Source: Fibrobacteraceae bacterium (GTDB lineage Bacteria > Fibrobacterota > Fibrobacteria > Fibrobacterales > Fibrobacteraceae). From it: 64,000 nucleotides of DNA. Under the pieces are notes generated by a model. The model made no database searches and was not told where the DNA came from. It saw only the letters and a list, made by a program, of their open reading frames with translations. Location: positions 13,514 to 77,513 of the forward strand of contig JAZQSE010000012.1 in the NCBI GenBank assembly GCA_045629945.1. Reading direction: 5' to 3'. Shown in pieces: positions 14,076-33,267 of the stretch. The translations under genes and the position numbers were made by a program. Within the stretch, counting starts at the first letter, position 1; every line of letters begins with the position of its first letter.

Positions 14076-14453
14076 ATGGCAACCACAAAGAAAACAGCTG
14101 CAGAAAAAGCACCAAAAGCTACTGCTAAGAAAGCTTGCGCCACTAAGGCTCCGGCAAAAAAAACTTGCGCTACTAAAAAAGCTTGCGAAGCAAAAGCCGC
14201 AAAACCTGCTGCTAAGAAAGCTGCCCCAAAAAAGGTTTCTGTTGAATTTGTTGCTGATTGTCCGCTTGCTACTACAGTTTCTGTCGCTGGCGCTTTCAAC
14301 AATTGGGCTGTTGACGCAGATATGCTCAAGAAAGAAAAGAAAACAGGCCTTTGGAAGGCAAAACTATCTCTTCTTCCTGGCGATTACGAATACAAGTTCG
14401 TTTGTGACGGAAAAAACTGGGACGAAGGCGATAACAAGATTAAACACGTTTAA
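14076..14453 (+). CDS. Small protein: Lys/Ala-rich histone-H1-like tail fused to a CBM48 / AMPK-beta-type glycogen-binding module
   Basis: The N-terminal 50 aa consist of AKKA/ATKK repeats. The C-terminal VSVAGAFNNW...GLWKAKLSLLPGDYEYKFVCDGKNWDEGDN matches the AMPK1_CBM/CBM48 signature. AGGAGA RBS. Confidence 0.7.
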   Translation: MATTKKTAAEKAPKATAKKACATKAPAKKTCATKKACEAKAAKPAAKKAAPKKVSVEFVADCPLATTVSVAGAFNNWAVDADMLKKEKKTGLWKAKLSLLPGDYEYKFVCDGKNWDEGDNKIKHV

Positions 14454-14577
14454 TTTTGTTGTTGTATTTGGCTAAGACTGTCGCTGAATCTACGCAAACT
14501 TGCACAAGCGTTTTTTAAAAACCTCTTGTTGCCGTTTTGCTAGTTTAGCTCTTAAATTTTGTCAAAAAAAAAAGAAA

Positions 14578-14612
14578 CATACCGCCGAGCATAGCTCGGC
14601 GGTATGTTTTTT
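14578..14612 (+). terminator. Intrinsic terminator
   Basis: 13-bp perfect stem CATACCGCCGAGC-ATA-GCTCGGCGGTATG followed by TTTTTT. Confidence 0.85.
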
Positions 14613-14630
14613 CGAAATTTTTCTATTCAG

Positions 14631-14669
14631 AAAAATTTCCTGACTCCAAATAGAAAAAAGATATATTTT
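14631..14669 (+). promoter_or_regulatory. Promoter-like box shared with 15779-15816
   Basis: AAAAATTTCCTGACTCCAAATAGAAAAAAGATATATTTT aligns with AAAAATTTCTTGACACCAACTCAAAAAAATATATTTT upstream of the next gene of the island. Confidence 0.35.
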
Positions 14670-14718
14670 GGGTACATGTTAGTTTCCCCATAAGACAGCC
14701 ACAGAATAAGGAGGGAAT

Positions 14719-15615
14719 ATGAAGAAACTTGTTTGTCTTATTACCTTCTTTGCGTTACTAGGGTATGCACAAACTAGATATTTGTATTTAAATTCTGAAC
14801 ATGAGGATGGAACGCAAAGCGAAATAGACGGTTCTGATTGGTTTTTATATTTTGGTCAGTGGAGTGTGATTTCTACGAGACTTCTTGTTTTTGACTCTGC
14901 AGAGGTCATTCTTGAAGACATTGATTATGATTACTTTCATGATTCTATTCCAAATGCAATGATATTAGATTCTACAGTTTTACCAGATTCTATGCCCATA
15001 TCGCCATTAATTTTACATGCACAAGAAAATGAAGGATGTCCTCTTTGGGGATCGTGGGGAGCGTCTTGTGGTCATTTTGCATTTGGTTTTCTTGTAATAG
15101 AAAAAGAAAATTACTCTGATTCATTATGGGTTGCTCCAATAGGGTATATTCCTGATTCTAGTAAAGCTTTAGATTTTAGAAATGATTTTTTAGAGTCTCG
15201 GGACTTTTTTTCTGTTCTTGAGAGAGAAAAGTATTTTGATGATATGTCTTATTACTGGTTTGACTCACCAGGTAAATTTTATAATGATTCAATAGGAAAT
15301 TTTTCTGTAAATTTGCGCTCGGATGATTCTTTATTTTTTATTTATAAAAGGGATACTTCTTTTGCGGTTTGTCGTTATGACTTTAATTATTATCCAACTG
15401 AAGATGTATTAAAAGCTAAGGATTTACTTTCTGAATCTAGTGATGTAAAATGCACACGATATACTGATGATGGTTCTCAATGTATTGAAAAAACATTTTT
15501 AGTCGAAAGATATTACAATTACAGGCATAATCCATATATTACTTGCAATCAGGTTAATGAGGATGAAATTATTTATTCCATTATAAAACCCACTCCCCAG
15601 CAATATACAGAGTAA
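14719..15615 (+). CDS. Secreted protein, island paralog A (unrecognised family; C-terminal sorting region lost)
   Basis: Signal peptide MKKLVCLITFFALLGYAQT, near-identical to paralog C. Shared blocks DSLWVAP, DFRNDF, DSLFFIYKRDTSFAVC and CTRYTDDGSQC. AAGGAGG RBS. Confidence 0.7.
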   Translation: MKKLVCLITFFALLGYAQTRYLYLNSEHEDGTQSEIDGSDWFLYFGQWSVISTRLLVFDSAEVILEDIDYDYFHDSIPNAMILDSTVLPDSMPISPLILHAQENEGCPLWGSWGASCGHFAFGFLVIEKENYSDSLWVAPIGYIPDSSKALDFRNDFLESRDFFSVLEREKYFDDMSYYWFDSPGKFYNDSIGNFSVNLRSDDSLFFIYKRDTSFAVCRYDFNYYPTEDVLKAKDLLSESSDVKCTRYTDDGSQCIEKTFLVERYYNYRHNPYITCNQVNEDEIIYSIIKPTPQQYTE

Positions 15616-15778
15616 ACGGCACAAATTCTAAAAACAATAAATCCAGTAATATCTTGTATGGCAAAGAACGTGCCGTGCGGTATTTACGAGAAGATTGAAT
15701 GATTTTATGTTATCTTAGAAAGCAAAATCACGATATCACCCTGGGCTCTATCAATCGCATTGCTCTTTTTAGAGTAAC

Positions 15779-15816
15779 AAAAATTTCTTGACACCAACTC
15801 AAAAAAATATATTTTT
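15779..15816 (+). promoter_or_regulatory. Promoter-like box (TTGACA ... TATATT) upstream of the 140-aa gene and the subtilase
   Basis: TTGACA at 15788-15793 and TATATT at 15808-15813. The spacer is only 14 nt, so the exact -10 is uncertain. Homologous to 14631-14669. Confidence 0.35.
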
Positions 15817-15846
15817 CTTACACACTTTTAAGGCAAGGAGTTTAAA

Positions 15847-16269
15847 ATGAAAAAGTTCTTTATGCTTTTTTGCATACTTTTTGCAACAAATGCCTTTACA
15901 GCAGAAATTTGCAATGATTCAAATTTTCCTACAGGTACTTGTCATGCAACAGGTTATGTTTGTGGCCTTGCCTATGATATGAACTCAAAAGAATCTACGC
16001 CTGCCAAAAGAATACTCAATTTTCATATCGGTAAAACAGCTAATTGCTTAGAATACGAAACGACCAATATTTCAGGAACTTCTGTTCCATTACGCATATT
16101 CTATTACCTTGACGAAAACGAAAATGCTGATGCATTGAACATGGTTATGACAGGTTCAATAGCAATGTCAGCAGCAAATCACCGCTATCCTGTGAATGTT
16201 GTTTATAAAAAAATTACAGGTGTTTCTAACGCTGTATTTCTAGTGGCTATTCAACAAAAAGAATTTTAA
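15847..16269 (+). CDS. Small secreted 4-Cys protein, unknown function
   Basis: Signal peptide MKKFFMLFCILFATNAFTA, mature about 121 aa with 4 Cys. AAGGAG RBS. It ends 18 nt before the subtilase ATG. Confidence 0.65.
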   Translation: MKKFFMLFCILFATNAFTAEICNDSNFPTGTCHATGYVCGLAYDMNSKESTPAKRILNFHIGKTANCLEYETTNISGTSVPLRIFYYLDENENADALNMVMTGSIAMSAANHRYPVNVVYKKITGVSNAVFLVAIQQKEF

Positions 16270-16287
16270 CAATTGATAGGTTTTCAA

Positions 16288-19200
16288 ATGTTGAGAGGCC
16301 TTTGTCTTTTGCTGCTGTTTGCAATACAGTTATTGGCCAAGGAACAAGTCCCCTTGACAATTCAGTTACTTTCAGAAAGACATCGCACTGAATGGAATTG
16401 GGTTGAATACAGATTAAAAATTACCAATACATCAACCACATCAATTATCAATCCAGATGTTTATTACTTTGCAGAAAATACAGAAGATTCTAGTCTTGTT
16501 TTAGATGTGGATTACGTCACTTATTTTTATTCAACAAAGGTAGAATCATTTATTACTGGAACATATAATATTTTTCAAATAAAATTAACGGGTGTTTTAC
16601 AACCCTCCCAATCACTAGATATTCATTTTAGAATACATAAAAATAATTGGAGTGCGTGGGATTGCTCAAAAGATTTTTCTTACCAACAAAAATCAGCTAC
16701 ACAAGAGCCGCATTATTGGGTAGCTGTTTATGACGCTTCAAAAGAATTGCTGTGGGGAGTTGATCCCGTTTCTGGCAAAAGAAAATCTGATGTTGTTTTG
16801 TGGTATGATAGAGGCGGAAAATCTGTAATTTATCCATATTCAGGAGATTCAACAGAGATTTTAAATCCTGGCCGTTTTTGGTTGTTAAAAGAAACTCCTT
16901 TGTCAAGCAAAGAAAGAAAACTATTAAAACAAAATGGGGTAGACGATTTAGAAGGAAGTAAATATCAGGGATTTTCTTTGTATCTGTTAAAAGTCCATTC
17001 TAAACAAATGAAGAAAATTTTAAATGAAAACATGTATGGATTTTATAACACCTTCCCTGTTGATGATACTACAAAATTAACATTAGAACTTTTGCCTGAA
17101 GAGGAAAATTTAGATTCACTTTCTATAACAATTTCTTGTTTTGCTGATGTTTCTATGGAAGTATGTAAAAGCATTGCGCAAAATTGTGGTGTAAAAAATG
17201 TTGAAATCGACCACCATGAGATTTTAGGGTTATTGTCCAAAAATCAAAAAGATTGTTTGCTAGAACATAATGACATTGAGTATGTAGGTGTTGTGCGTTT
17301 AGGAGCTCCTTTGAACGATGTTGGTAGAGAAGCGATTCATGTGACCGAATTGCAAAATTCAGAAGAATGGAAAAATTATTTAAAACAAAAAAATGCTGAT
17401 TTAGAATGGCTATCTAATGCAGGTTACACTGGAGAGGGAATTGTTGTAGGAGTATATGATACTGGAATTGATTGGAGTCACCCCGATTTTAATGAAATAG
17501 ATGAAAATGGAAATATGGTTCCTAGAAAAGTTCGAAAAGAGGAGTTATTTGTTAAAGAAGAGAATAAGGATAACGTATTGAAAGAAATGAAAGAATATAA
17601 TCCATCAGATCCCGAGAAAGATGAGCCTTGGCACGCAACAACAGTTGCGGGTATTCTGGGAGGCAATGGTTCTTTTTCACCTGAATACAAATATCGTGGT
17701 GTTGCTCCTAAAGTACATTTTTACTCTGGAGCAAATGGTTACAATGGACAAATAGGCCATGTGGTTAATCATTCGCATGTAGACAATAATAAGTGTGGCT
17801 TGTATGAAATAACGAATTATAATGTCGACAAAAATATTTTTAACAATTGGAAAACTTTTACTGATGATGGTGATACGTTAACAAAAGCAGTCGTTGTAGG
17901 AGCTGGCAATAATGGGTTTGCTAGTCCAGGAGAAAAATACGGTTACCAAATTGGTTATCATTCCATTCTTTCTAATTCAAAAAACGCAATTACAGTTGGG
18001 AATTACTCTGCTTTAACAGGAATTCGCTTTTCTAAATCTAGTATGGGACCAACTTGGGATGGTCGTATTAAACCTGATGTAATGGCTCCCGGAGCAGAAT
18101 TAGAAATAGTTAATGAAAAAGTAATCCCTATTCATTCTCCCTACCCATGTAATGAAAAAAATATGGAAAGTTGTTATTTTGATATGCCAGATGGTGGAAC
18201 TTCTATGTCTGCCCCATTTGTTTCAGGCATTGCCGCTTTAATCTATCAACGATACAGAGAAATAACAGGAATTCCACTAGATAAAAAATCATTAAGGAAT
18301 TCAACTATTAAAGCCATGCTCATTCACACCGCAGAAGATATGGAAGTGTCCATTACAGAAGAAACAAAAAAATATATGAGACCCAACCCTGATATTACAC
18401 ATTCTGAAAATGATGGGAATAATTATTATACACCTTATGGAAAAGGTCCTGATTTTGCTACAGGTTGGGGTAAAGTCAATGCAAAAAAAGTACTTCAAGT
18501 TTTAGAAGAAAATCGCTACCTGGAAACAGAAATTGCAAATGGTGTAGAAAAACGTTGGAATCTGTATATTGCCCCAAGCAAAGACGCCTTCCGTGTAACT
18601 ATGGTTTGGGACGATGCTTATGGAAAGATAGATTCAATAATACCTCCAAAACTTTTCTATACGGATTCTAAATTGGTCAATGATTTAGATATATATTTAA
18701 TTTCACCTTCAGGGAAATACCATTATCCATGGAAATTAAATCCATTACCAACAGATGAATTAGAAAAAACAACCTTTGGATGGCGTTATAAGGGTACGGA
18801 AAAAATAAAATTAAGTGACATTCAAGACGCCGTAAGAGATTGTAACAAACCTTATAAATTAGATTCTGAATGTTTTGACCATTTAAATAATGTAGAAGTT
18901 GTTGATGTAGATAATCCTGAATCAGGAATATGGCAAGTGGTTGTAATGGGAACAAGTGTTACCCAAGGGAATGGTATTTTAGATACAAGCGCCCAAGTTG
19001 TATCTTTGGCAAGTGATGTTTCTTTAAATGATTCAATTTGTGGCGTAGTTTCCCCATACCCACCTATGTCAACTTTGCAATGTGAATATGATTTAGGGGA
19101 TAATCTTGAGAATTACGTTATTTTTGGCGAGGAGGCAACTCTCGGTTCTGGAGATACTATTTATATTTATGATGCAAAAGACAAATTGCTAGGTAAATAC

Positions 19201-19368
19201 ACTGGTTCATCACTTGCAGGTAAACGCATAACATTTCATACAAACAAATTAAAGATTGTTTTAGATAGTGATAACGAGGATACCCGAGATTTTGGTTATA
19301 GAATTAAAAAGATTGAAAGTTTACCTTACACCATTTTACCTATACTTTTTAAGGCTGCCACAGAATAA
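16288..19368 (+). CDS. Secreted multidomain subtilase (peptidase S8): CBM3, I9-like propeptide, S8 catalytic domain, P-domain-like beta-sandwich, CUB-like domain
   Basis: Catalytic triad contexts VGVYDTGIDWSHPDF (Asp), HATTVAGILGG (His) and GGTSMSAPFVSGIAAL (Ser), plus GAGNNG for the oxyanion Asn. The N-terminus aligns block by block with CipA CBM3a (LKITNTSTTSI..., IHFRIHKNNWSAWDCSKDFSY, LLWGVDP). The C-terminus CGVVSPYPP...C.Y...IYIYDAKDKLLGKYTG...KLKIVLDSDNEDTRDFGYRIKKI fits the CUB pattern. Confidence 0.88.
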   Translation: MLRGLCLLLLFAIQLLAKEQVPLTIQLLSERHRTEWNWVEYRLKITNTSTTSIINPDVYYFAENTEDSSLVLDVDYVTYFYSTKVESFITGTYNIFQIKLTGVLQPSQSLDIHFRIHKNNWSAWDCSKDFSYQQKSATQEPHYWVAVYDASKELLWGVDPVSGKRKSDVVLWYDRGGKSVIYPYSGDSTEILNPGRFWLLKETPLSSKERKLLKQNGVDDLEGSKYQGFSLYLLKVHSKQMKKILNENMYGFYNTFPVDDTTKLTLELLPEEENLDSLSITISCFADVSMEVCKSIAQNCGVKNVEIDHHEILGLLSKNQKDCLLEHNDIEYVGVVRLGAPLNDVGREAIHVTELQNSEEWKNYLKQKNADLEWLSNAGYTGEGIVVGVYDTGIDWSHPDFNEIDENGNMVPRKVRKEELFVKEENKDNVLKEMKEYNPSDPEKDEPWHATTVAGILGGNGSFSPEYKYRGVAPKVHFYSGANGYNGQIGHVVNHSHVDNNKCGLYEITNYNVDKNIFNNWKTFTDDGDTLTKAVVVGAGNNGFASPGEKYGYQIGYHSILSNSKNAITVGNYSALTGIRFSKSSMGPTWDGRIKPDVMAPGAELEIVNEKVIPIHSPYPCNEKNMESCYFDMPDGGTSMSAPFVSGIAALIYQRYREITGIPLDKKSLRNSTIKAMLIHTAEDMEVSITEETKKYMRPNPDITHSENDGNNYYTPYGKGPDFATGWGKVNAKKVLQVLEENRYLETEIANGVEKRWNLYIAPSKDAFRVTMVWDDAYGKIDSIIPPKLFYTDSKLVNDLDIYLISPSGKYHYPWKLNPLPTDELEKTTFGWRYKGTEKIKLSDIQDAVRDCNKPYKLDSECFDHLNNVEVVDVDNPESGIWQVVVMGTSVTQGNGILDTSAQVVSLASDVSLNDSICGVVSPYPPMSTLQCEYDLGDNLENYVIFGEEATLGSGDTIYIYDAKDKLLGKYTGSSLAGKRITFHTNKLKIVLDSDNEDTRDFGYRIKKIESLPYTILPILFKAATE

Positions 19369-19379
19369 GGAGGTAAAAT

Positions 19380-20471
19380 ATGAAAAAAATATTATTTTCC
19401 TTTTATGTTTTATGCATTTTTCTCATCACATCTTTTGCTGAAAAAGAATTGCAAGTTATTGAATTTACGGATGAACAATTTTTAACAGAATATTATGCAA
19501 ATTTTTTTTCTATGGATATCTTTGATAGTTGTTATATCAAAGATTATATGGAAGAATTATACAATGTCCCCGCAACAGACAGTGTTGCTATTTATAATAC
19601 ATTAGATTGGTATGATTATTATGATATATATTTTTACGATTGTTCGGCATCTCAGGAAATTGAAATCATGCCTTTTGGAGTATTATCAAATGCTACATAC
19701 AATTTAATTCCAAATGAAAATTATTACCAATTAAACCGAATCTATTTTTCGTTTCAAAAAGAAGGTCTTATTTATCATGAACCTATGAATCCGGATATTA
19801 TGTTCGCAACAGTTTACATGTATACAAATTTATTAACTTTTCCAATTAAAAACACAAAAGTTTATTTTGTGTTATCTGCAAATTTTCATGAAAATCGTAT
19901 AGACTCTCTATGGATTCCAAAATGTTATAAAGAAACAGACTGCAATGTAAAATTCCCATTAAACATGTCAAATTTTTTTGAAATAGAAGATATTAAGGAT
20001 TCTTTGATTTATTTAGAGAATTTTTCAGATTCAACAACTGATTCAACGGCTCAAAAAAGTATACATGGAATGGTATTCAAAGATAATCAAAAACATTATT
20101 TTTTATATAAAAAAGACACAACATACAAAGCTCTATGCGTTTTTGATCCAACACCATTTCATTACTATTCAGATCTAACCTCCTGTACATATTATACAGA
20201 CATGAAAATAGGTTGTTTTTTTTCAAAAAACGATTGGACAGAGTTTGATTCATTACCACAATTAAAAAATAAGGATAATATTTCTTACGCTAATACTTAT
20301 GCTTCTCCATATCCGTGTCAACTGGAAAATAATCCTATTCGTAAACATATAATACAACGCAACTCTTTTCTTCCACACATTTTCCAAATCAACGGACGTA
20401 AAGTTTCAAATAAAAATGCTTCTGGAGTTTACGTTTCAAAAGATGGCGCAAAAGTTGAATTGCAAAAGTGA
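19380..20471 (+). CDS. Secreted protein, island paralog B, with T9SS-CTD-like C-terminus
   Basis: Has a signal peptide and the blocks DSLWIP, YFLYKKDTTYKALC and SCTYYTDMKIGC. The C-terminus is IFQINGRKVSNKNASGVYVSKDGAKVELQK. Its ATG lies 11 nt after the subtilase stop, behind AAGGAGG. Confidence 0.7.
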   Translation: MKKILFSFYVLCIFLITSFAEKELQVIEFTDEQFLTEYYANFFSMDIFDSCYIKDYMEELYNVPATDSVAIYNTLDWYDYYDIYFYDCSASQEIEIMPFGVLSNATYNLIPNENYYQLNRIYFSFQKEGLIYHEPMNPDIMFATVYMYTNLLTFPIKNTKVYFVLSANFHENRIDSLWIPKCYKETDCNVKFPLNMSNFFEIEDIKDSLIYLENFSDSTTDSTAQKSIHGMVFKDNQKHYFLYKKDTTYKALCVFDPTPFHYYSDLTSCTYYTDMKIGCFFSKNDWTEFDSLPQLKNKDNISYANTYASPYPCQLENNPIRKHIIQRNSFLPHIFQINGRKVSNKNASGVYVSKDGAKVELQK

Positions 20472-20473
20472 TT

Positions 20474-20629
20474 AGGTAAACGTATGACGCTTCGTACAAA
20501 CAAATTAAAGATTGTTTTAGATAGCGATAACGATGGAGTTGAAGGTTTTGGTTATAGAATTAAAAAGATTGAAAGTTTACCTTACACCATTTTACCTATA
20601 CTTTTTAAGGCTGCCACAGAATAAGGAGG
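20474..20629 (+). pseudogene. Relic copy of the subtilase 3' end (last third of the CUB-like domain, stop codon and RBS)
   Basis: Gap-free manual alignment to 19218-19373 gives 15 mismatches in 156 nt, with the last 84 nt identical. It retains an in-frame 46-codon remnant ORF at 20484-20624. Confidence 0.8.
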
Positions 20630-20633
20630 GAAT

Positions 20634-21752
20634 ATGAAAAAGCTTGCTTATATAATAGCCTTCTTTGCGTTACTAGGGTATGCACAAACTCCTCAGATTT
20701 TTATGGAAACATGGAAACCATACATAATTGATGAGGAGAAAAACTCTCAAATAATTAACATTTGGTATTTATGGGAGTATAAAGACTATTGGCATATTGA
20801 TGGGTATTGGGTTGTTGATTCAATACAATCAATAAATTTTCCTTTAGAGTCTAATTATAGTGGCGAGAATTTAATCATAGATGAGTATTATTATGATAAT
20901 CAATCATATGAATCAATAAAGGTAATCGATTTTAATTCTACGCAACTTTTAGATACATCTTCTGCAATGTATGTATTAAGTACTCATGATAATAAAAATT
21001 GCATAGGAAAAAGAGATGATTGTTTTGAAAATTATGGATTTTCTTTTTTAATAAAAAATAATTTTCAAGACTCATTGTGGTTAGCTTCCAAAAATTATAA
21101 AGGGGAAAATGGAATAGATTTCAGAAATGATTTTATGGAATGGCGAGGATGGCATGAACTTGAATATAAAAATGATTACTTAGATACTATATATCACTTT
21201 AATAAAGATTCAACAGAAAATAAAAATTTTTCACTAAATGTTAGAAGAACAGATTCACTTTTTTTTGTCTATAAAAAAGACACCTCTTTTGCTGTATGTT
21301 ACAACAATTATGAATGCTTTACTTATCTTTTGGGAAGTATTGATGAATCTGACACTATTTGTACAAATGTTTCTGACGATCAAAGCCAGTGTTTAGAAGG
21401 TTATTATACTAAAAGGGAACAATATCGTCACCATTTTAATAAGTCTCTTAAATGTTATTATGGTAATGAAAGTAAAGTAAAATATTTTATAAGTAAAATT
21501 TCTAATAAAACAAATTTATGTCCGTCAGAATCTTTCCTAACATCTACTATACTAATTACTGAACCCTTTTCTTTAAAGGAGTCTTATTTACCACCCGAAG
21601 AAACTATTGTTATAAAATCAAGATTCAAAGAAAAACAAAATCATTTTATAAAATCAAATTTTTATAATATCAACGGACGTAAAGCTTCAAATAAAAATGC
21701 CTCTGGAGTTTACGTCTCAAAAGATGGCGCAAAAGTTGAATTAAAAAAGTAA
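20634..21752 (+). CDS. Secreted protein, island paralog C, with T9SS-CTD-like C-terminus
   Basis: Signal peptide MKKLAYIIAFFALLGYAQT. Blocks DSLWLAS, DFRNDF, DSLFFVYKKDTSFAVC and CTNVSDDQSQC. C-terminus FYNINGRKASNKNASGVYVSKDGAKVELKK. Confidence 0.7.
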   Translation: MKKLAYIIAFFALLGYAQTPQIFMETWKPYIIDEEKNSQIINIWYLWEYKDYWHIDGYWVVDSIQSINFPLESNYSGENLIIDEYYYDNQSYESIKVIDFNSTQLLDTSSAMYVLSTHDNKNCIGKRDDCFENYGFSFLIKNNFQDSLWLASKNYKGENGIDFRNDFMEWRGWHELEYKNDYLDTIYHFNKDSTENKNFSLNVRRTDSLFFVYKKDTSFAVCYNNYECFTYLLGSIDESDTICTNVSDDQSQCLEGYYTKREQYRHHFNKSLKCYYGNESKVKYFISKISNKTNLCPSESFLTSTILITEPFSLKESYLPPEETIVIKSRFKEKQNHFIKSNFYNINGRKASNKNASGVYVSKDGAKVELKK

Positions 21753-21893
21753 CAAGCATGCTGTTCTGCATTTACGAGAAGATTGAGTTCTTGTAAAAAA
21801 TCCATGTTTTCTAAAATTTACTTGCTTTTGTTTTTTTTGTTTACATTCAAGATTAAAGCAATAATTTTGATTTAGAAACAAGGATTTGGAAAA

Positions 21894-22307
21894 ATGCATA
21901 TTACAGAGAGCGAACTTGACAAATTAATCAAGGACTTACTCAAAATTCACTTCATTTACGTAGCCAAGGAAGATAGTCAAAAAGTTGATGATTACTTAAA
22001 AAATTTAACTCTATTTACAAAACAAACACCTATTTTTACGCAAACAAAACCAATACCTATTCATTGTTATATTCAAAATGTAGAAGTTTCCTCTAATTCT
22101 TTTAAAAATCGTTTCATAGAAAAGGGTTCCTGTAAAGTTAAGCGTCATTACGAGAATGGAACTAACGATGAATATTCATGGAAAATAACAACCCACCCTC
22201 ATCAAATTTCCTTTTCTAAGGATTCTAATTTATTTGGAAACCTTCGCTCTAAAAGGTGGTATCGCGACAAGGCAAAATCTTTACGTTTAATTGAACTTAT
22301 TTTGTAA
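21894..22307 (+). CDS. Hypothetical cytoplasmic protein (orphan)
   Basis: 137-aa ORF with no signal peptide and no motif I recognise. It ends 30 nt upstream of lysA. Confidence 0.4.
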   Translation: MHITESELDKLIKDLLKIHFIYVAKEDSQKVDDYLKNLTLFTKQTPIFTQTKPIPIHCYIQNVEVSSNSFKNRFIEKGSCKVKRHYENGTNDEYSWKITTHPHQISFSKDSNLFGNLRSKRWYRDKAKSLRLIELIL

Positions 22308-22336: not shown

Positions 22337-23596
22337 ATGAATTACTCTATTCCTAAAGATATTTTTGTAAAGGCTGCCGAAGAATACGGAACGCCGCTTT
22401 GGATTTATAACCGTGAAACTATCGAGCAACGAGTTAAAGAAACTAAAGTTTTTGACGTTGTTCGGTATGCACAGAAAGCAAATTCAAACCTTTCCATTTT
22501 AGCTTTAATGAAACGCCTTGGCGTTGTAGTAGATGCCGTTTCGGCGGGCGAAATTGTTCGTGCTTTAAAAGCCGGTTACAAAGGTGGAATAGAAAAAGGG
22601 AAAGCTCCAGAAATTGTTTATACTGCTGACATTTTCGACGCAGACGCTTTGGAACTTGTAAAGCAACATAAAATTCCAGTGAATATTGGCTCTCCAGATA
22701 TGATTGAACAACTGGCTGCGGCAGGTATTCGTACAGACCTTACACTTCGCGTGAATCCTGGTTTTGGACATGGTCACTCAAGCAAGGTAAATACTGGTGG
22801 TGATTTATCAAAGCATGGCGTTTGGCATGAACAAATTAAAGAATGTGTTAAGTTAGCTCAAAAACATGGAATGTGGATTTCCGGCTTACACATGCATATT
22901 GGTTCGGGTTCGGACTTTGAGCATTTAGCCAAAGTTTGCGATTCTATGTGCGATGCAGCCCGCGCTCTTGGAAGCCATCTGAAAACAATTTCAGCCGGTG
23001 GCGGTCTCCCGATTTCTTATAAAGAAGAAGATAAGGGAAATCGAATTGATATGCAGCTTTATTTTGAACTTTGGGATAAAGCAAGAAAGCGTATTGAGCA
23101 AAGTATCGGCCACGCGGTTTCTTTAGAAGTTGAGCCAGGGCGTTATCTTGTAGCAGAAAGTGGTTATCTCGTATCAGAAATTAGAGCTATCAAAAAACAA
23201 GCCGATAATACATTCTACTTAGTGAATGCAGGCTTTACCGATTTGGTTCGCCCGAGTTTCTATGGTAGTTATCATGGGATTTCTATTATACCTCGCGACA
23301 GCCGCGAATTGAATGAATCCGAAAATGTCATTGTGGCAGGCCCTCTTTGCGAATCAGGGGACGTATTCACTCAAGAAGAAGGCGGTTTTGTTGTTACCCG
23401 TAATTTGCCCAAAGCACAAGTCGGTGATTTGTTGATTCTCCATGATGCTGGTGCTTACGGTGCTTCTATGAGCAGTAATTATAATAGCCGTCGTTATGCT
23501 GCAGAAGCTATGTATTCAAAAGGTGAACTCAAACTTATAAGAGAAAGGCAATCTTTTGAACAGATGCTTCAAAACGATAAAGTGATTGATTTTTAA
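22337..23596 (+). CDS. lysA: Diaminopimelate decarboxylase
   Basis: YAQKANSN (PLP Lys), HMHIGSG, GGGLPISY, EPGRYLVAESG and CESGDVF. Confidence 0.9.
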   Translation: MNYSIPKDIFVKAAEEYGTPLWIYNRETIEQRVKETKVFDVVRYAQKANSNLSILALMKRLGVVVDAVSAGEIVRALKAGYKGGIEKGKAPEIVYTADIFDADALELVKQHKIPVNIGSPDMIEQLAAAGIRTDLTLRVNPGFGHGHSSKVNTGGDLSKHGVWHEQIKECVKLAQKHGMWISGLHMHIGSGSDFEHLAKVCDSMCDAARALGSHLKTISAGGGLPISYKEEDKGNRIDMQLYFELWDKARKRIEQSIGHAVSLEVEPGRYLVAESGYLVSEIRAIKKQADNTFYLVNAGFTDLVRPSFYGSYHGISIIPRDSRELNESENVIVAGPLCESGDVFTQEEGGFVVTRNLPKAQVGDLLILHDAGAYGASMSSNYNSRRYAAEAMYSKGELKLIRERQSFEQMLQNDKVIDF

Positions 23597-26481: not shown

Positions 26482-29400
26482 TTGAAGAAAAACATTTTGG
26501 TTCGCATCTCGCAAATCGGGTTTGTCGGGTTACTATCCGCTGCCGTATTTTCTTTTGCACAAAGCGATAACACAAAAGATTCTTCTGAATACAAATCTCC
26601 TGTCCAGTACTTTGATTTGCCGCCAAATGTCACTCCTCTTGATGGGTTGTTACCAAGTGGTGGTATTGGACAAAGTAATTCTTTAATGTCTTCTCCAAGA
26701 AACATTATTCAAGATCATGAAATTGATGTTGGAACAAGAAGTCTTGAAGTTAAAGAAAAATACGTAAACCCCTTATCAAAAGATACAACAGAACTTTGGT
26801 CTGCTAGTTACCCAGAACTTGCTGATTATGTAAACGATATGTACGATATCGGGTTAAATCGCCTTTGGCTTAACTCGCTTATCGGAAACAAAAATGATGG
26901 TTACACACCACCAGAAAAAGGTTCTGAATTTGATATTTCTATCCCTGTTCCAATGCCTGCCTGGATGAAAACTTTTGGTTTTGATAAACCAAAATTATTT
27001 TTGCAAGGGACAATGGATATTCGTTTGAAAGGGTATGGCGAATACGATGACGCCCCCGGTAGTACTGAACGCAGTTTATTCCCTTCGCCTTCACTTTCTT
27101 ATGACCCTAGCTTTATGGTCAAAGGAAAAATCGGGCCTTATGTGACAGTTGAAATAAACAATGTTGAAAGTGGCCTTGGCGTAAAAAACCAGGTGCGCGT
27201 TGTTTATGAAGAATCTTACAAAGGCGAATTTGAAGATTACATTTTACAAAGAATTGAAGCCGGTACAACTTCTTTAAGTCTTAGTGGTACAGAATTAACT
27301 GGTTATTCTGAAAATCACCAAGGATTGTTTGGCATTAAAGCCGATTGGAAATTCGGCGACTGGAATGTAACCACTATTGCTTCTCAAGATGGAGGCAGTC
27401 AAGAGTCTTACACAATCAATGCAAGCGAAAGTACTTCTGAATTCCAAATTTTAGATAAGAACTTTTTGGCCTATCGTTATTATTTCTTGAATCACGAAGC
27501 AAGAAATAATTATATCAGCGCAGGTATTGCCGGCAAAACAACGGCTTCTTATGCAGCAACAGGGCTTAAACTTTATAAGAGAAGTAACCTTAATTCAACA
27601 GAAGATGTTTTGGATAATATTACTGTTGTGTATGTTACGCCATCAGGACAAACCATTGAAAAGTCTGTTGAACGCATGACAGAAATCCCTGCTAAAGATT
27701 ACTCCTATGATTCAAAAACCGGTATCCTGAAAATTTCTGGAGCCAATCGCAATACATTGATTGCGGCTAGTTGGAGTGGTGATGGCACAGGGCGACCGGG
27801 GACAACTGTTCGCGATGGTTCCCGCCTTGTACTTATACAATGGGATGCTACTCTTTCAGAATTAAAAGACATTGACAAGTTGATGCTTCGCAATGTTTAT
27901 TCTGTTGGTATTTCTGATGAAAGTGCTTCTAGTTTTGTTTTAAGAATGAAAACAAAGTCAGGCATCAGCGGCGATTACTTAAAACGCCTTCGTGTTGCCG
28001 ACACCACAACAGGCGCTCCTTTAGTTAATGACGCGACCATTTTTAGAAAAAATTCTACTGGTGGTTATAGCGGAGAAATGTGGTTGCCTTGCTTGCCTGC
28101 AAAAGAATACTCTGGCGCAAACGCAGCTGAACGTGCAAGACAAAACTGTCTTGAACCTTTAAGGAACCTTGATTCTTCTGCAGCAATGGCTCAGCTCTAT
28201 ACATTGCCTGTTCCAAACCTAAATCGTTATTCAAGCAAGTTCTATTTTGAATCTGTCGGAAAGCGTCGCAGTTCTACTATCAGCGTAAGAGACCAGAACT
28301 CTAGCCATTCGGTGAGTGCCGGAGCTTGTATGGACATTTCTCCAGGAACTGAAAAACTTAAAGCTGGTTCAGAAGTTCTTGTTCGTGATATTGACTACGA
28401 AGTAAACTATGAACTAGGTCAAATTGAATTATTAAGTGATAGAGCGCTTGACCCGAATAAAGAAATTACTGTCACATTTGAATGTGAACCTTTATTTGAA
28501 ATAGACAACAAGGTTTTACTAGGAGCTAGAGCGGAACTTCCTTTAACTTATTATGGTTTTGGTGAAGGTTCTTTATTTGGTGTTACAGCTCTTTATAAAA
28601 GCCAAAGTACAACAGCCTCCACTCCAACTCTTGGAAACGAACCATTCTCCAGTTTCTTATGGGGCATGAATTTACGTTTACAAGACACTTCAAAAATCAT
28701 TACTAAAATGATGGGAGCTATTCCCTTCCTTTATTCCAAAGCTCCTTCCACCTGGCGGTTTGAAACTGAATTTGCAAGTAGCTATCATAATCCAAACACT
28801 AATGGCAAAAAGACCGCATTACTTGAAGATTTTGAATCCACAGTCACTGGATTAATGTATCCTCTTACAAGGCTTTCTTGGTACCAAGCATCTCCTCCAG
28901 GTGGTATTTCTAGTAATATCGGAACTTATATCCCAGACCAGGATTACAGACACCAAGGGGAATTTATTTGGCATAGCAACACCACAGAACTTTACAAATA
29001 CATTTACCCAAATGTCGGCGATTCTGAAGTAGATAACCAAAGGCTTTCTGTTTTAAAATTGACACTTCGTCCAAATGACAATTTAATGGGAAAAAGCTGG
29101 GGCGGTATTATGCGACCCAACAGCGCTTATTACCAAGACTTAAGCGAAATGCGTTATGTTGAAGTTGTAGCTCGCGGAAATGTTGGTTCTCTTTATTTGG
29201 ATCTTGGTTTATTGAGTGAAGACATTTCTATTAATGGTTATGCTCCTAACGATAATTTTGATGGTGAAAATACTTTAGGAACAACAACTGCTTTACACGA
29301 CAAAGGTCTTGATGGCATTTCAGGCTCTGAAGAAACCAGACTCGTTTGGGATTGTCGTATTGAAGGCTGCGTTTCTACAGAATTAACTTCTGCAAATGTT

Positions 29401-32400
29401 AACCCAACTTTGACAGATATTGCTCAAGATAATTACAGCGACGATTATGATGAAGATAGCGATCCGCCACGTTTAATAAATGGAACAGAAGACAACTCTG
29501 GTGAACGCGCTTATGATACTGAAGACATAAATAGAAATGGTTCTCTTGACACAGACATTAGCTTTGTCCGTTATCGCATTGACCTTTCTAGTGATGACCC
29601 GACACAATATGAAGAACTTAAAAATGGTTGGCGCCGTTGGAGAATTCCACTTGACCAATACGACACAATTGTTTCTGCAAGTGGAAATGGGTACAAGACA
29701 ATTCTTTCAGAAGCTCTTTTCTCAAGAATCTGGCTTGGCAATTTAAATCCAGGCGTTGCAGAAGCTAAAGTTCAAATTGTTAATCTTGGTGTTGTTGGAA
29801 ATAGTTGGGAAGCAAATGATGTTTCTGATATGTATGTCACGTCTTCTACAGAAAATTCTCAAGTGGTTGATGTCAATGGAAATGAAATCAATATTTCTCA
29901 AACGGGTTCAACTCTTGATTCTTCTTTCTTGCAAGTCACAACGATAAATAACCGTGAAGATGCAGGAACTTATTTTAAATCACCAAATACATCTTCTGAA
30001 CGCGATTCAGAGACCAACGCAGCCTTAAAAGAAACAGCTCTTGTTCTTGATTATAAAAACCTTTCGCCAGGCCAAGAAATTGGCGTTACCAGAATTTTCG
30101 AATCAGATGTTAAAGATTTGACAAGCTATAAAACCATTAAAATGGAAATCCATTACGAAACCGAAGCTGAGAAAGTTCCTGTCCGTTTTGCAATCCAAAT
30201 GGGTGAAGGTTCTTTAGAAGGTTCCTCTAATTATTACGAATGGAGTTTCCGTCCAGTAAAATTCTCTTGTACATCTTCTGAACGCATTGAAGATTGTCAT
30301 GAAATGAACTGGTTAGATAATGCTTTTGCTATGGCTATCAAATCCTTTACCGATATGAAAATCGGACGCACTCCTCCTTATACAGAACCTGTTGAAGTTG
30401 ATTTAGGCGGAGAACGCGAAGAACGTTTGAAATTAGTTGGCAACCCTTCTATGACATCTGTTGACTGGATTCGCTTTGTTATTATTGCTGACGAAGACGC
30501 TTCACCAGCTGATTTAAAAGGAACTTTCTGGTTAAACGATTTGCGCCTTTCAGGAATGGATTTAGATTGGGGCTACGCTGCTCGCGTTTCTGGCCAAATG
30601 AATTTTTCAGATTTCGCCACCGTTTCCGGAGCCATGCGTTATCAAGACGGTGACTTTGCAACTCTATCAACAACAGGTGGTTCTCCAAAGCCAAAACTTT
30701 CTGATGCAGCCTCTCAATTAGATGTAGCTGGTGACATCAGTTTTAGCTTAAATAAATTTTTCCCAGACCAGAATGGTTTCCACATTCCAATGGGACTTGG
30801 TTATAGTAGCGTTACTGAACGCCCTTACATGAAGCCTACTGACGACATGCTTCTTGAAAGAGAATATTTCGATGACCTGGTATCTGACATGGTACAAAAC
30901 AAATTAGATGTCCATAAAAATTCTGAAGAAGAAGATTTAAGAAACGAAGCTCGTTCAAAAGGTTATGAAAGTTATTCTAAAAACCGCAACTTCAGCATTA
31001 GTTATAGCAAAGACTATATTCCTAACGACAATTTATTGCAAGAATATTTAACACAGATTTTCCTTGAACGCCCGGCTTTCAGTTATTCTTATAATGAATC
31101 GGAAAATCGTTCTACAACAAGTGCCGATTCTTCTTATTCATACAGAACCGTTATTGAATATAAACTCGGGACTTACAACAAATTCAATTTCAAACCTTTC
31201 TCTTCTCTTGGCCGCTTCCGTTATTTACGTCCGCTTTCAGAATCTGCTTTTGAACCATGGCCACAAACGTTTGACTTGACATTGTTTGACTTTAGTTATG
31301 TCCGTTACGTTGATCAAGAACGCGACCCGGATTTTGTAGAACCACAAGTAGATAAAGTCGTTACATTTACTGCTGACTTAACACACAAAGCAAATATCCG
31401 CTGGAATATTTTCTCTTTCCTGAATGCTAGCTACAGCATAAATGTAAAACGCGATATGTTAGCCGATAGAGAAGCGTTTGTCAAAGAAAACTTCTTTACA
31501 GGACGTGACGGCTCTTTATTTGCCGCTGATGAAATTTTTGCTTGGGACCACACAGACAGAAAAGTTTATGTCTCTGCTGATAGTATTGTGGCTATCCCTT
31601 ACGATACAATTCCGCAAATCAATGCTGCCGGCGACACAATGGCTATTGACATGCAAAACCCTGACTCATATAAAATTTTATATGACACAACAACATTCTA
31701 TAAAGTGGATAGTTTAGGCAAAAAAGATTACGGCCCGAAATATGGCATTTTAAAACACGAACGCGTGCGCAACAGACAATTCCGGGTGAACTTCACTCCA
31801 AATATTATTCCGTTCTTGCCTATAAATATGACTTTCAATACAGACTTTACTCAGCAAAAAACAATCCCTGATGATTTTAGTCTTTATGATGAAACCATGG
31901 TAGAAAAGAATTTCTGGACTATTTCACAAACAAACCGTTTTGAATTTGTTCCAAGTTTCCGTTTCATTACATTTATGGAATTATTTGGCAAAGGCAATGC
32001 CGCTCAGAAATTCTTTGAAAAATTGAAATGGCGTGAACTAAGAATGAACTGGACAACTAGTTTGTCTACAATCGGTGAAAACTTTACACTTGCCCAACTC
32101 TACGAAGAACAAGGGGTGAATCCTTTACAATACTATCTCTATGGTTTAGGTATTGGTAATGGTTACCGCAATCGTGGCCTTTGGAATATTATTTCTGGCG
32201 ATATGGGACTTGACCATCGCGACGACTACAAAGACTTTGCTGAATACAGAAACCGTCACGTAGATACTCTTGTTTACCAAGGGAATTTTACACACGCCGT
32301 TTCTCGTTCTCTACAATTATCAACTGGCTTTACTTTGCCTTTCTGGAGTATTGGTATAACCGGTGACTTGCAATGGAAACAAGATTTCTCTCAATCTCGT

Positions 32401-33267
32401 GAATACCCTCTTTATACCGATAGTACATTGATTTGGCCAAAATGGGGAATCGGTATAACCATTCCTAATTTCTCTCAACGCATTAGTTTCTTGAATGGAT
32501 TCAAGAGCGTTTCTTCAACACACCGTGTTGACTACAGCCATACAAAGACCGTAAAACCGTTCCAAAGCGCTGAAGACTCTTGGAATACCACTTGGAATTT
32601 CAACCCTCTTGTCCGCCTTTCTTTCTTGACGCAAAAAAATATTCGCATAGATAACAGCGTTCGTTTGAAAATAGAAATGGTTGATAGAAAACCAAAACAA
32701 GAAGTTATTGCTCAAACAAACTGGCCAGAAAAAGAAGAAAACATTGCTGACACCTCTTCTTACTTCTGGGAAACTCCATGGATGCATACTGCCTTATATA
32801 AAGATTTTGGTATAAATATTGGCGATGACTTAACCATTACCTACCCATTAAAAACGAAAAGAGGTTTCCAACTCTGGAAATGGTATATCAAACTTGATAA
32901 TGACATTGATTTAAAATTCACTGCTGGTTATGATTTCAGTAAAACCATTCGCCGTTACTATGACCCTGATCCCGGTTTTGATATGTGGAAAAAAGAAAGT
33001 GGAACTGACGGCGTGTATAAAGAATGGGAATTTGATGGTTATAAATACACCGCATACAAACCAAAGTTAGAATTAACCGAAAGAACAGTACCTTCTAGAA
33101 CGCATGAATGGTTCTTACGACCAAGTGCGGCTTATCAATTCAACAAAATGGTTTCCACCAGTGCTTATGTGGAATACAGACAAATTCATGAAAAGCTAGA
33201 TGACGAAACGGCTCATATTCGCCAAATATTAACATTTGAACTGGCTTTAATGCTACGCTTTAATTAA
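26482..33267 (+). CDS. sprA: SprA-like type IX secretion translocon (giant outer-membrane beta-barrel protein)
   Basis: 2261 aa. TTG start followed by signal peptide KKNILVRISQIGFVGLLSAAVFSFAQ. Long stretches of amphipathic strands, C-terminal ...LALMLRFN. Size and layout match SprA. No ATG alternative is present. Confidence 0.65.
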   Translation: MKKNILVRISQIGFVGLLSAAVFSFAQSDNTKDSSEYKSPVQYFDLPPNVTPLDGLLPSGGIGQSNSLMSSPRNIIQDHEIDVGTRSLEVKEKYVNPLSKDTTELWSASYPELADYVNDMYDIGLNRLWLNSLIGNKNDGYTPPEKGSEFDISIPVPMPAWMKTFGFDKPKLFLQGTMDIRLKGYGEYDDAPGSTERSLFPSPSLSYDPSFMVKGKIGPYVTVEINNVESGLGVKNQVRVVYEESYKGEFEDYILQRIEAGTTSLSLSGTELTGYSENHQGLFGIKADWKFGDWNVTTIASQDGGSQESYTINASESTSEFQILDKNFLAYRYYFLNHEARNNYISAGIAGKTTASYAATGLKLYKRSNLNSTEDVLDNITVVYVTPSGQTIEKSVERMTEIPAKDYSYDSKTGILKISGANRNTLIAASWSGDGTGRPGTTVRDGSRLVLIQWDATLSELKDIDKLMLRNVYSVGISDESASSFVLRMKTKSGISGDYLKRLRVADTTTGAPLVNDATIFRKNSTGGYSGEMWLPCLPAKEYSGANAAERARQNCLEPLRNLDSSAAMAQLYTLPVPNLNRYSSKFYFESVGKRRSSTISVRDQNSSHSVSAGACMDISPGTEKLKAGSEVLVRDIDYEVNYELGQIELLSDRALDPNKEITVTFECEPLFEIDNKVLLGARAELPLTYYGFGEGSLFGVTALYKSQSTTASTPTLGNEPFSSFLWGMNLRLQDTSKIITKMMGAIPFLYSKAPSTWRFETEFASSYHNPNTNGKKTALLEDFESTVTGLMYPLTRLSWYQASPPGGISSNIGTYIPDQDYRHQGEFIWHSNTTELYKYIYPNVGDSEVDNQRLSVLKLTLRPNDNLMGKSWGGIMRPNSAYYQDLSEMRYVEVVARGNVGSLYLDLGLLSEDISINGYAPNDNFDGENTLGTTTALHDKGLDGISGSEETRLVWDCRIEGCVSTELTSANVNPTLTDIAQDNYSDDYDEDSDPPRLINGTEDNSGERAYDTEDINRNGSLDTDISFVRYRIDLSSDDPTQYEELKNGWRRWRIPLDQYDTIVSASGNGYKTILSEALFSRIWLGNLNPGVAEAKVQIVNLGVVGNSWEANDVSDMYVTSSTENSQVVDVNGNEINISQTGSTLDSSFLQVTTINNREDAGTYFKSPNTSSERDSETNAALKETALVLDYKNLSPGQEIGVTRIFESDVKDLTSYKTIKMEIHYETEAEKVPVRFAIQMGEGSLEGSSNYYEWSFRPVKFSCTSSERIEDCHEMNWLDNAFAMAIKSFTDMKIGRTPPYTEPVEVDLGGEREERLKLVGNPSMTSVDWIRFVIIADEDASPADLKGTFWLNDLRLSGMDLDWGYAARVSGQMNFSDFATVSGAMRYQDGDFATLSTTGGSPKPKLSDAASQLDVAGDISFSLNKFFPDQNGFHIPMGLGYSSVTERPYMKPTDDMLLEREYFDDLVSDMVQNKLDVHKNSEEEDLRNEARSKGYESYSKNRNFSISYSKDYIPNDNLLQEYLTQIFLERPAFSYSYNESENRSTTSADSSYSYRTVIEYKLGTYNKFNFKPFSSLGRFRYLRPLSESAFEPWPQTFDLTLFDFSYVRYVDQERDPDFVEPQVDKVVTFTADLTHKANIRWNIFSFLNASYSINVKRDMLADREAFVKENFFTGRDGSLFAADEIFAWDHTDRKVYVSADSIVAIPYDTIPQINAAGDTMAIDMQNPDSYKILYDTTTFYKVDSLGKKDYGPKYGILKHERVRNRQFRVNFTPNIIPFLPINMTFNTDFTQQKTIPDDFSLYDETMVEKNFWTISQTNRFEFVPSFRFITFMELFGKGNAAQKFFEKLKWRELRMNWTTSLSTIGENFTLAQLYEEQGVNPLQYYLYGLGIGNGYRNRGLWNIISGDMGLDHRDDYKDFAEYRNRHVDTLVYQGNFTHAVSRSLQLSTGFTLPFWSIGITGDLQWKQDFSQSREYPLYTDSTLIWPKWGIGITIPNFSQRISFLNGFKSVSSTHRVDYSHTKTVKPFQSAEDSWNTTWNFNPLVRLSFLTQKNIRIDNSVRLKIEMVDRKPKQEVIAQTNWPEKEENIADTSSYFWETPWMHTALYKDFGINIGDDLTITYPLKTKRGFQLWKWYIKLDNDIDLKFTAGYDFSKTIRRYYDPDPGFDMWKKESGTDGVYKEWEFDGYKYTAYKPKLELTERTVPSRTHEWFLRPSAAYQFNKMVSTSAYVEYRQIHEKLDDETAHIRQILTFELALMLRFN

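Follow-up and report, generated by a model that had tools for sequence, protein, structure and literature searches.

The window analysed here is a stretch of 64 000 nucleotides from a Fibrobacteraceae bacterium (contig JAZQSE010000012.1). Between 14.6 and 21.8 kb of the window, five consecutive open reading frames (ORFs) lie on the plus strand in the order paralog A, C4, subtilase, paralog B and paralog C. We use PAR for the family of the paralogs, C4 for the small protein with four conserved cysteines and S8 for the subtilase. We consider it probable that the locus is a functionally coupled protease-partner module that has so far gone undescribed: the genes of the module are co-oriented and tightly spaced, consistent with a single operon, and the S8, PAR and C4 families co-occur in unrelated genomic contexts. 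The copy in the window appears to be a lineage-specific, rearranged and amplified version of a three-component secreted module that is found across Fibrobacter. A first-pass annotation, made from the sequence of the window, had described five consecutive plus-strand genes with signal peptides set between housekeeping genes. The ORFs are as it described, the N-termini of all five proteins show by eye a basic and then a hydrophobic stretch of the signal-peptide type, and the flanking genes are rpe and a gene for a CBM48 protein on the left and lysA on the right.

The subtilase gene (16288-19368, + strand) encodes 1026 aa from its ATG, with an alternative TTG start at 16273. Its S8 catalytic domain (17386-18402, +; residues ~372-710) was placed from a Pfam match and from an alignment to a solved subtilase. 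The match to PF00082 (Peptidase_S8) has an E-value of 9.3e-39 and 134 bits, against a cut-off of 21.8, and the motifs YDTGID, WHATTVAG, GAGNNG and GGTSMSAP align with those of the solved subtilase 9ues_B. The Asp-His-Ser triad, in subtilase order, and the oxyanion Asn are all present. With its DTG, H, N and GTSMSAP motifs in register with those of a solved enzyme, the subtilase looks catalytically competent. Towards the N-terminus, residues 29-165 (16357-16767, +) resemble several CBM3 structures (E 1e-4 to 1e-3), among them 3zqx, 3zqw, 2l8a and 4b9c in phmmer searches (E 9e-5 to 3e-4), over the full length of ~135 residues, and orthologs of the subtilase carry a precomputed match to PF00942 (CBM_3). 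The current Pfam CBM_3 model gives no match on the window's subtilase, and some CBM3 subfamilies do not bind cellulose; the label 'cellulose-binding' that had been given to the enzyme appears to hold at family level only. The region 3' of the catalytic domain is weakly similar to the C-terminal beta domain that also follows the catalytic domain in the KP-43 and SubHal subtilases (5fax and 1wmd; E 0.009-0.03), and the catalytic-domain matches to 5fax and 1wmd have E-values of 2e-11 and 3e-9. Unlike KP-43 and SubHal, the window's subtilase adds the N-terminal CBM3-type domain, a ~200-aa region without assignment and a ~130-aa C-terminal region. One homolog, P0018, is 100% identical to it (here and below, P numbers denote homologous proteins and L numbers the loci fetched for comparison). 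There are >220 homolog clusters for the subtilase, with named sources that are nearly always Fibrobacter or Fibrobacteraceae.

The C4 gene (15847-16269, +) encodes a 140-aa protein that is predicted to be secreted and has four conserved cysteines in the pattern C-N..C..GYVC..C. Paralog A (PAR type A; 14719-15615, +; 298 aa) lies upstream of it, and paralogs B (PAR type B; 19380-20471, +; 363 aa, with the tail INGRKVSNKNASGVYVSKDGAKVELQK) and C (PAR type C; 20634-21752, +; 372 aa) follow the subtilase, B starting 11 nt after the subtilase stop. The three proteins are 22-36% identical in pairwise comparisons and share the aligned blocks that had been recognised by eye, with invariant DSLW, Y-K-x-D-T, A-x-C and two further cysteines. 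Paralog A is a member of the family, as had been described, but is truncated and defective in this genome. Relative to its orthologs in L001, L006 and L007, 79 nt have been lost between short direct repeats, and this out-of-frame deletion cuts the protein short. From reading of the sequence and the alignment, an out-of-frame remnant of its C-terminal tail (YRVNGTNSKNNKSSNILYGKERAVRYLRED*) lies at 15606-15698 (+). Paralog A is 96% identical to the 352-aa protein P0002 and to the same three orthologs. Paralog B is 99% identical to the L001 copy and has no counterpart in L006 and L007, and paralog C is 94% identical to P0007, with 95% nucleotide identity to a copy in L038.

Each paralog gene is preceded by the same 17-mer, GCCACAGAATAAGGAGG, which occurs in exactly three copies, at 14698, 19357 and 20613, one each 5' of A, B and C. 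Shuffled sequences gave a mean of 0.15 matches, and none of 100 shuffles reached three. At 19357, as the first-pass annotation had noted, the string is made up of the final codons of the subtilase, its stop and the ribosome-binding site (RBS). The subtilase 3' end with its stop and RBS (19218-19379, +) appears to be the master copy of the boundary of a repeated unit (repeat spacing 1256 nt). The copy 5' of paralog A (14698-14714, +) is the exact 17-mer and reads as a fossil of the subtilase stop region and RBS. Before paralog C the string is present as had been claimed, but the repeat there is not limited to 17 nt: 162 nt (20474-20635, +) form a non-functional fossil of the last ~54 codons of the subtilase with the stop and RBS, 90-97% identical to 19218-19379 and 95% identical to the S8 3' end of L009.

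The paralog genes are themselves composite. B and C share an 82-nt tail-coding 3' segment at 94% identity, whilst their bodies are almost without DNA similarity. The first 85 nt of C match A at 88% and the A ortholog of L001 at 99%, so that C has a 5' end like A and a tail like B, and the body of C has almost no DNA match in L001-L007. B and C read as mosaics, and their dissimilar bodies and similar ends suggest that conserved 5' and 3' handles flank variable bodies.

Partner families and their linkage to the subtilase

PAR (A, B, C and distant homologs) and C4 gave no match in Pfam, NCBIfam, PADLOC or PHROGs, and their profiles found nothing meaningful among PDB sequences. The earlier statement that neither the paralogs nor the 140-aa protein contain a known domain is borne out by these searches and, for the paralogs, by Foldseek as well. 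With the window's PAR family as query, six clusters were found among 5.8 billion proteins, and an exhaustive HMMER search with this narrow PAR profile against 1.84 billion representatives returned 12 hits, all of the same family or its fragments. The narrow family is present in two GTDB species genomes only, which are caecal Fibrobacteraceae metagenome-assembled genomes (from water deer and yak).

Like the window's paralogs, distant PAR ORFs (270-340 aa) carry a signal peptide, D-S-[LIV]-[WYF] and YF[IV]YKK...AxC. Further on they have another Cys, a basic linker and a tail that reads Y-[KR]-[VI]-N-G...S-S-N...L-[KR]. By hhalign, the narrow and canonical PAR families match at the YKKDT..AxC motif (E 1.5e-7) and in the tail (E 9.4e-6), and these two matches are collinear in merged alignments. 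Because the gene context is identical as well, we judge it very likely that the two families are homologous. A search seeded with both PAR groups returned 43 clusters, none with a precomputed Pfam domain, and the few that are named come from Fibrobacter. No stretch of the 43-sequence PAR alignment was conserved enough for a family-wide pattern; the pattern scan for PAR loci is confined to the canonical subfamily. C4 homologs are clear, sharing C-N..C..GYVC..C and a conserved C-terminal half. They adjoin S8 genes in L008, L010, L015, L018, L020, L031 and L034, and PAR genes on short contigs such as L026. C4 is a conserved third component of the module, a role that the first-pass annotation had not given it.

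An AlphaFold2 (AF2) model of paralog C, made from a seven-sequence alignment, had a predicted local distance difference test score (pLDDT) of 41.5 and was too poor for use. The model of the homolog P0141, from 43 sequences, reached a pLDDT of 70 and a predicted template modelling score (pTM) of 0.71. This model shows a mainly beta core (20-230), then a basic linker that is disordered (232-265), and a tail hairpin of low confidence. Foldseek found no match to it in the PDB (best E 0.11, template modelling (TM) score about 0.1). A phage tail-fibre or collagen-like fold, to which hits in BFVD pointed (E 7e-4 to 8e-3, TM about 0.26), was too weak to be accepted as a fold assignment. The conserved tail of ~25 aa is found on PAR only; the only tail-only hits in the exhaustive HMMER search were two fragments.

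The first-pass annotation had proposed a test of linkage between the paralogs and S8 genes. ORFs were called in all fetched loci and scanned with PAR, C4 and S8 profiles, with S8 genes sought within 5 kb. Three divergent subtilase homologs were used to fetch loci and neighbours (L008, L009, L010), and all three of these S8-anchored loci have PAR directly downstream and an adjoining C4 gene. L008 holds a 337-aa ORF, S8, a 282-aa ORF and a 155-aa ORF; L010 holds S8 and then ORFs of 293, 271 and 149 aa; L009 (5066-10602) holds C4 (140 aa), an S8 of 1206 aa and an F-type paralog (323 aa), a set of genes that has another genomic context than in the window and directly follows an IS256-family transposase fragment. 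The earlier remark that no mobility genes are visible is true in the window but does not extend to this second copy of the module. Among the loci retrieved by PAR alone, S8-PAR-C4 was found in L015-17, L018, L020, L022, L031 and L034, the L022 contig cutting the S8 gene, and a CBM3-S8 gene lies beside PAR in six of the 11 distinct PAR-anchored loci with enough upstream DNA. The S8 profile gave no further hit in the flanks of the scanned loci. For an assumed genome of ~3.5 Mb that contains a few such S8 genes, the probability that one lies within 5 kb by chance is estimated at <1% per locus, so that the linkage of S8 and PAR is far beyond chance.

A CBM3-S8 gene with adjacent PAR and C4 genes on the same strand was found in the window, L001, L002, L006-L010, L015-L018, L020, L031 and L034, and the independent contexts that hold the module are L008, L009, L010, L015, L018, L020, L031 and L034. 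The usual order is S8-PAR-C4, with gaps of 2-4 nt at most junctions and with 2-11 nt between the S8 stop and the next PAR start where that start is unambiguous. In the window's clade, C4 appears to have moved upstream and PAR to have multiplied.

Three side observations concern these loci. In L031 (435-11384), S8-PAR-C4 is present twice, with identical ORFs 6438 nt apart, as a tandem duplication or an assembly artefact. In canonical Fibrobacter loci, the gene to the left of the upstream PAR gene usually encodes a conserved, cytoplasmic-looking protein of 570-640 aa with only weak TIM-barrel-type matches (L011 5014-6939, L018 1-1335, L020 1562-3322, L029 2176-3882). The 613-641-aa protein upstream of solo PAR genes was considered as a relative of the subtilase and rejected, being the product of an unrelated, cytoplasmic-looking neighbour gene. 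In L011, a CBM_3-containing ORF begins 6 kb downstream of the solo PAR gene.

Arrays and exchange between lineages

The locus is syntenic in L001-L007, running from the CBM48 gene through to lysA, prs, nhaA and sprA, and the site is shared with at least two other Fibrobacteraceae species rather than private to this genome. With paralog types assigned by identity and DNA matches, the array of the window reads A*-C4-S8-B-fossil-C, where A* is the truncated paralog A. The corresponding layouts are A-C4-S8-D-E in L006 and L007, A-C4-S8-B-fossil-D'-E in L001 and L002, ...B-fossil-G-fossil-D'-lysA in L037 and CBM48-C-fossil-G-fossil... in L038; L037-L039 are short metagenomic contigs in which repeat-induced chimeras are possible. 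The fossils in L001, L037, L038 and L039 are always the same 46-codon end of the subtilase. As the same fossil heads each array unit, the unit of amplification is the subtilase 3' end, the RBS and a paralog. The first-pass annotation had suspected an ancestral unit of a protease gene translationally coupled to a paralog gene, later amplified and in part deleted, and the 162-nt fossil before C, the arrays of 46-codon fossil plus paralog in other strains and the 2-11-nt gaps all speak for it. The window and L001 are 98.3% identical over 15585-20690, and divergence begins exactly after the signal peptide of C. In this clade the arrays grow and are reshuffled by recombination between conserved handles, the left handle comprising the subtilase 3' end, RBS and signal peptide, and the right handle the tail-coding segment.

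Mean pairwise identity across nine modules is 55% for S8, 47% for C4 and 36% for PAR, where the comparisons often cover partial lengths only. PAR is the fastest-evolving component and is variable in copy number. Within types, most PAR ortholog pairs have a crudely estimated ratio of non-synonymous to synonymous substitution (dN/dS) of 0.15-0.33. The estimates for S8 are 0.18-0.21 and those for lysA, by comparison, 0.03-0.04. On these values the island genes are functional and under purifying selection, yet less constrained.

At synonymous sites, the island genes (14719-21752) of the window differ from those of L006 by 0.01-0.14, and the adjacent lysA (22337-23596) differs by 0.35. The lower divergence of the island suggests that it has recently been exchanged between related lineages, more recently than its flanks. 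Comparison with L009 gives a similar picture on a finer scale. Over 15779-16943 of the window, L009 is 99.1% identical across the promoter, C4 and the first ~220 S8 codons; beyond these codons there are patches of 72-88% identity or no DNA match at all, and the PAR gene that follows belongs to another type. This identity followed by divergence marks the subtilase gene as mosaic. GC content inside the island is 27-34%, against 37-43% outside, and in all eight loci tested the GC of the module is 5-15 points below that of its flanks.

Interpretation and alternatives

The novelty lies in the two partner families, PAR and C4, in the private tail and in the cassette array with its fossil boundaries; as an enzyme, the protease is of an ordinary type. 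In the literature searched, a Fibrobacter CBM3-subtilase or its neighbours are nowhere described. We put forward, as a tentative scheme that is possible rather than probable, that the three families make up an extracellular system which is new and specific to Fibrobacter. In it, a short private C-terminal tag would direct the rapidly diversifying, novel-fold PAR proteins to a dedicated CBM3-type subtilase. The subtilase would either mature and display them, as a new kind of tag-plus-protease sorting, or be specifically inhibited by them, in a polymorphic arms race of proteases and anti-proteases among strains that compete on plant fibre, and the cassettes would be shuffled via the 3' fossils. 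In the reading that we favour, Sec would export the subtilase, PAR and C4, which would then work together beyond the cytoplasm, and the CBM3-type domain may anchor the protease to cellulose. PAR proteins would be clients of the protease, either substrates for maturation or interchangeable adaptors, and would dock via their module-specific C-terminal tail. C4, in single copy, would be a chaperone or an inhibitor that restrains the protease. The specific roles given here to PAR and to C4 are each tentative at best.

Several observations weigh against a coupled module or against particular parts of the scheme. PAR genes without an S8 gene within 4-8 kb occur in L011-13, L014, L027 and L029, L036 likewise shows PAR without S8, and these solo PAR genes mean that the S8-PAR partnership is not obligatory in cis. 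In L038 (1-3106), immediately after the CBM48 gene comes a C-type paralog, and then fossil-G-fossil. S8 and C4 may be missing from this array; the contig is short and possibly chimeric. The homology of the narrow and canonical PAR families is carried by two short profile matches and the gene context, and reciprocal HMM-versus-sequence searches (HMM, hidden Markov model) gave E 0.0014 one way and nothing the other way. Promoter-like sites in the region are not enriched over shuffles, so that co-transcription is read from spacing only. No known-family match points to a function for PAR or C4. Finally, as regards export of the subtilase across the outer membrane, scans found no match to the C-terminal domain (CTD) of the type IX secretion system (T9SS), and neither a lipobox nor an autotransporter barrel was seen by eye.

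The closest analogues are dentilisin, protease-inhibitor operons, the arrays of contact-dependent inhibition (CDI) and Rhs loci, and C-terminal tag systems; the comparisons place the locus in none of them. Dentilisin (CTLP) of Treponema denticola, encoded by prcB-prcA-prtP, likewise combines an S8 subtilase and two non-protease partners with export signals in one operon, and these partners are needed for an envelope-associated protease complex. Against the PrtP model NF033595, the window's subtilase has an E-value of 3.4e-6 and 26 bits, where the cut-off is 300, which reflects no more than a general S8 resemblance. Neither NCBIfam nor Pfam has a family that matches PAR or C4, hence no likeness to PrcA or PrcB was seen, and a dentilisin-type complex was rejected. 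Unlike the dentilisin partners, PAR and C4 are by eye without a lipobox; the partner gene is also amplified and variable here, and the subtilase has a CBM3-type domain. The T9SS CTD/PorU, LPXTG/sortase and PEP-CTERM/exosortase systems are similar in that divergent paralogs with a short C-terminal tag are found near a dedicated protease. They differ in that the PAR tag is no T9SS CTD and has no transmembrane segment by eye, and in that the protease is S8 rather than sortase-type. An anti-phage defence system with an S8 protease (IetAS and others) was also rejected: the PADLOC defence models gave just generic subtilase and weak IetS matches on the S8 domain and none on PAR or C4, so that neither defence-specific models nor partner genes were found.

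Protease-inhibitor operons and CDI/Rhs arrays bear on a rather unlikely alternative, in which PAR proteins, instead of or besides C4, are cognate inhibitors and strains gather orphan PAR cassettes against the proteases of their neighbours. Such an array would account for a PAR gene directly downstream of the protease gene with very short gaps, for the fast evolution of PAR and for the upstream-gene fragment that heads each cassette, a layout that would have its counterpart in the orphan modules of CDI and Rhs loci. The subtilase mosaic between the window and L009, with a different PAR type downstream, also fits. As in cdiA-CT/cdiI and Rhs orphan arrays, tandem cassettes are headed by 3' fragments of the upstream gene, which provide homology for recombination, and cassette content varies between close strains. 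Unlike in those arrays, no variable toxin domain is present in the fossil, the main gene encodes a protease whose C-terminus is conserved, the cassettes encode large signal-peptide proteins rather than small immunity proteins, and CDI/Rhs hallmarks are absent. PAR proteins (270-400 aa) are, moreover, longer than would be expected of a protease inhibitor: staphostatins, potempins, SSI and ecotin have ~100-160 aa, a range into which C4 falls. Inhibitors are not known to bear a conserved tail on a flexible linker, and the crude dN/dS estimates within types (0.15-0.33) give no sign of positive selection. As to sequence and structure, there are very weak, non-significant hints (Staphostatin_B, E 0.052; START/Bet v1-like tops in Foldseek, E > 0.1) but no significant likeness to any inhibitor family; with the best family match, to Staphostatin_B, below the cut-off and the best Foldseek PDB match at E 0.11, PAR was rejected as a member of a known inhibitor family.

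For C4 itself, the gene of a small protein with an export signal (about 120 aa when mature, four Cys), set beside a protease gene and separated from its neighbours by short gaps, recalls the staphopain-staphostatin, Tannerella KLIKK protease-potempin and Myxococcus PopC-PopD systems. In the staphostatin, potempin and PopD systems the inhibitor is co-transcribed with the protease. Searches with C4 against Pfam and the PDB found no likeness to any inhibitor family, and these systems have no counterpart of the amplified PAR family.

It is improbable that PAR proteins are simply cargo of a general route (T9SS or BTD), with the tail as a degenerate sorting signal and the linkage as a consequence of a shared low-GC island. 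By eye the basic tail does resemble the last strands of a T9SS CTD (x-NG-R/T-x ... G-V-Y ... K-V-E-L-K-K), the BTD and FPm-1 domains of Fibrobacter have been proposed as T9SS signals (PMC6851124), and the GC of the module is below that of its flanks in all eight loci tested. A 2261-aa ORF (26482-33267, +) that lies ~5 kb downstream of the island is syntenic with an L001 gene bearing PF14349 (SprA_N), and this SprA-type gene indicates that a T9SS component is encoded in the genome. The tails and the whole proteins, however, gave no PF18962 or TIGR04183 hit at E <= 10, whilst a genuine Fibrobacter CTD from L015, used as a positive control in the same run, matched PF18962 at E 4.6e-6; AF2 likewise shows a low-confidence tail hairpin and no beta sandwich as of a T9SS CTD. 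The PAR tail was rejected as a T9SS CTD. An HMM of the tail was compared with F. succinogenes sequences (the BTDs of FSU_2361 and FSU_2362, the FPm-1 of XynC and FSU_2263, and four CTDs; PMC6851124, supplement 1) and gave E >= 18 throughout, the best E being 18 at Z = 3000. A BTD/FPm-1 identity was rejected on this result, and the 'LKG' ending that the tail has in common with BTD/FPm-1 by eye is not significant. The surface location that the first-pass annotation had read into the module is tentative. The tail is moreover restricted to PAR, unlike a general sorting signal, and a 2-11-nt adjacency that recurs in many contexts is hard to explain by hitch-hiking. Since the tail is no T9SS CTD, BTD or FPm-1 and is on no other family, we infer that its partner is module-specific, being either the subtilase or C4.

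That the array is decaying, non-functional DNA made of duplication pseudogenes is very improbable, for although paralog A is frameshifted in the window, subtilase 3' fossils are scattered through the arrays and GC is low, B, C and other types keep intact reading frames of 350-400 codons in DNA that is AT-rich, their identity to orthologs from other species is 94-99% at dN/dS of 0.15-0.33, and both the family and its gene order have been conserved throughout Fibrobacter.

Fibrobacter ranks with the most effective degraders of cellulose in herbivore guts, and the organisation of its proteins at the cell-fibre interface is debated. A coupled protease-partner module, the reading that we favour, would join a CBM3-type protease to two database-unknown families, one of them without a PDB fold match and with a private tag. 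Should the partners prove to be clients, Fibrobacter would have a new route for maturing proteins or displaying them on the fibre; should they be inhibitors, this would point to a strain-level protease arms race on plant particles. The two families could be curated, which would give names to hundreds of 'hypothetical proteins'.

Flanking and minor elements

An intrinsic-terminator-like hairpin (14572-14612, +) with a 19-bp stem and a subsequent T run closes the CBM48 gene and marks the left boundary of the island. Two promoter-like segments follow on the plus strand, one 5' of paralog A (14618-14668, with CTGACT-16-TATATT at 14640-14667) and one 5' of C4-S8-B-C (15766-15816, with TTGACA-16-TATTTT at 15788-15815), both of them putative. 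They are direct repeats of each other at 76% identity, and the second is 99% conserved in L009. The repeated segments suggest two transcription units, A alone and C4-S8-B-C. Scans of the region for tRNA and Rfam RNAs found none.

At the right edge of the low-GC island is a 137-aa ORF (21894-22307, +) whose membership of the island is uncertain. It has no family match in Pfam, NCBIfam, PADLOC or PHROGs scans and no signal peptide by eye. Its presence in L001 (130 aa) and L006 and absence from L007 and L037 mark it as a variable extra gene.

On the left, the N-terminus of the CBM48 protein (14076-14453, +) is Lys/Ala-rich and resembles histone H1/Hc2. This part is built on an internal 87-nt repeat (14085-14148, 14172-14235), and the H1/Hc2-like stretch is an odd fusion partner for the glycogen-binding-type module of the CBM48 protein.

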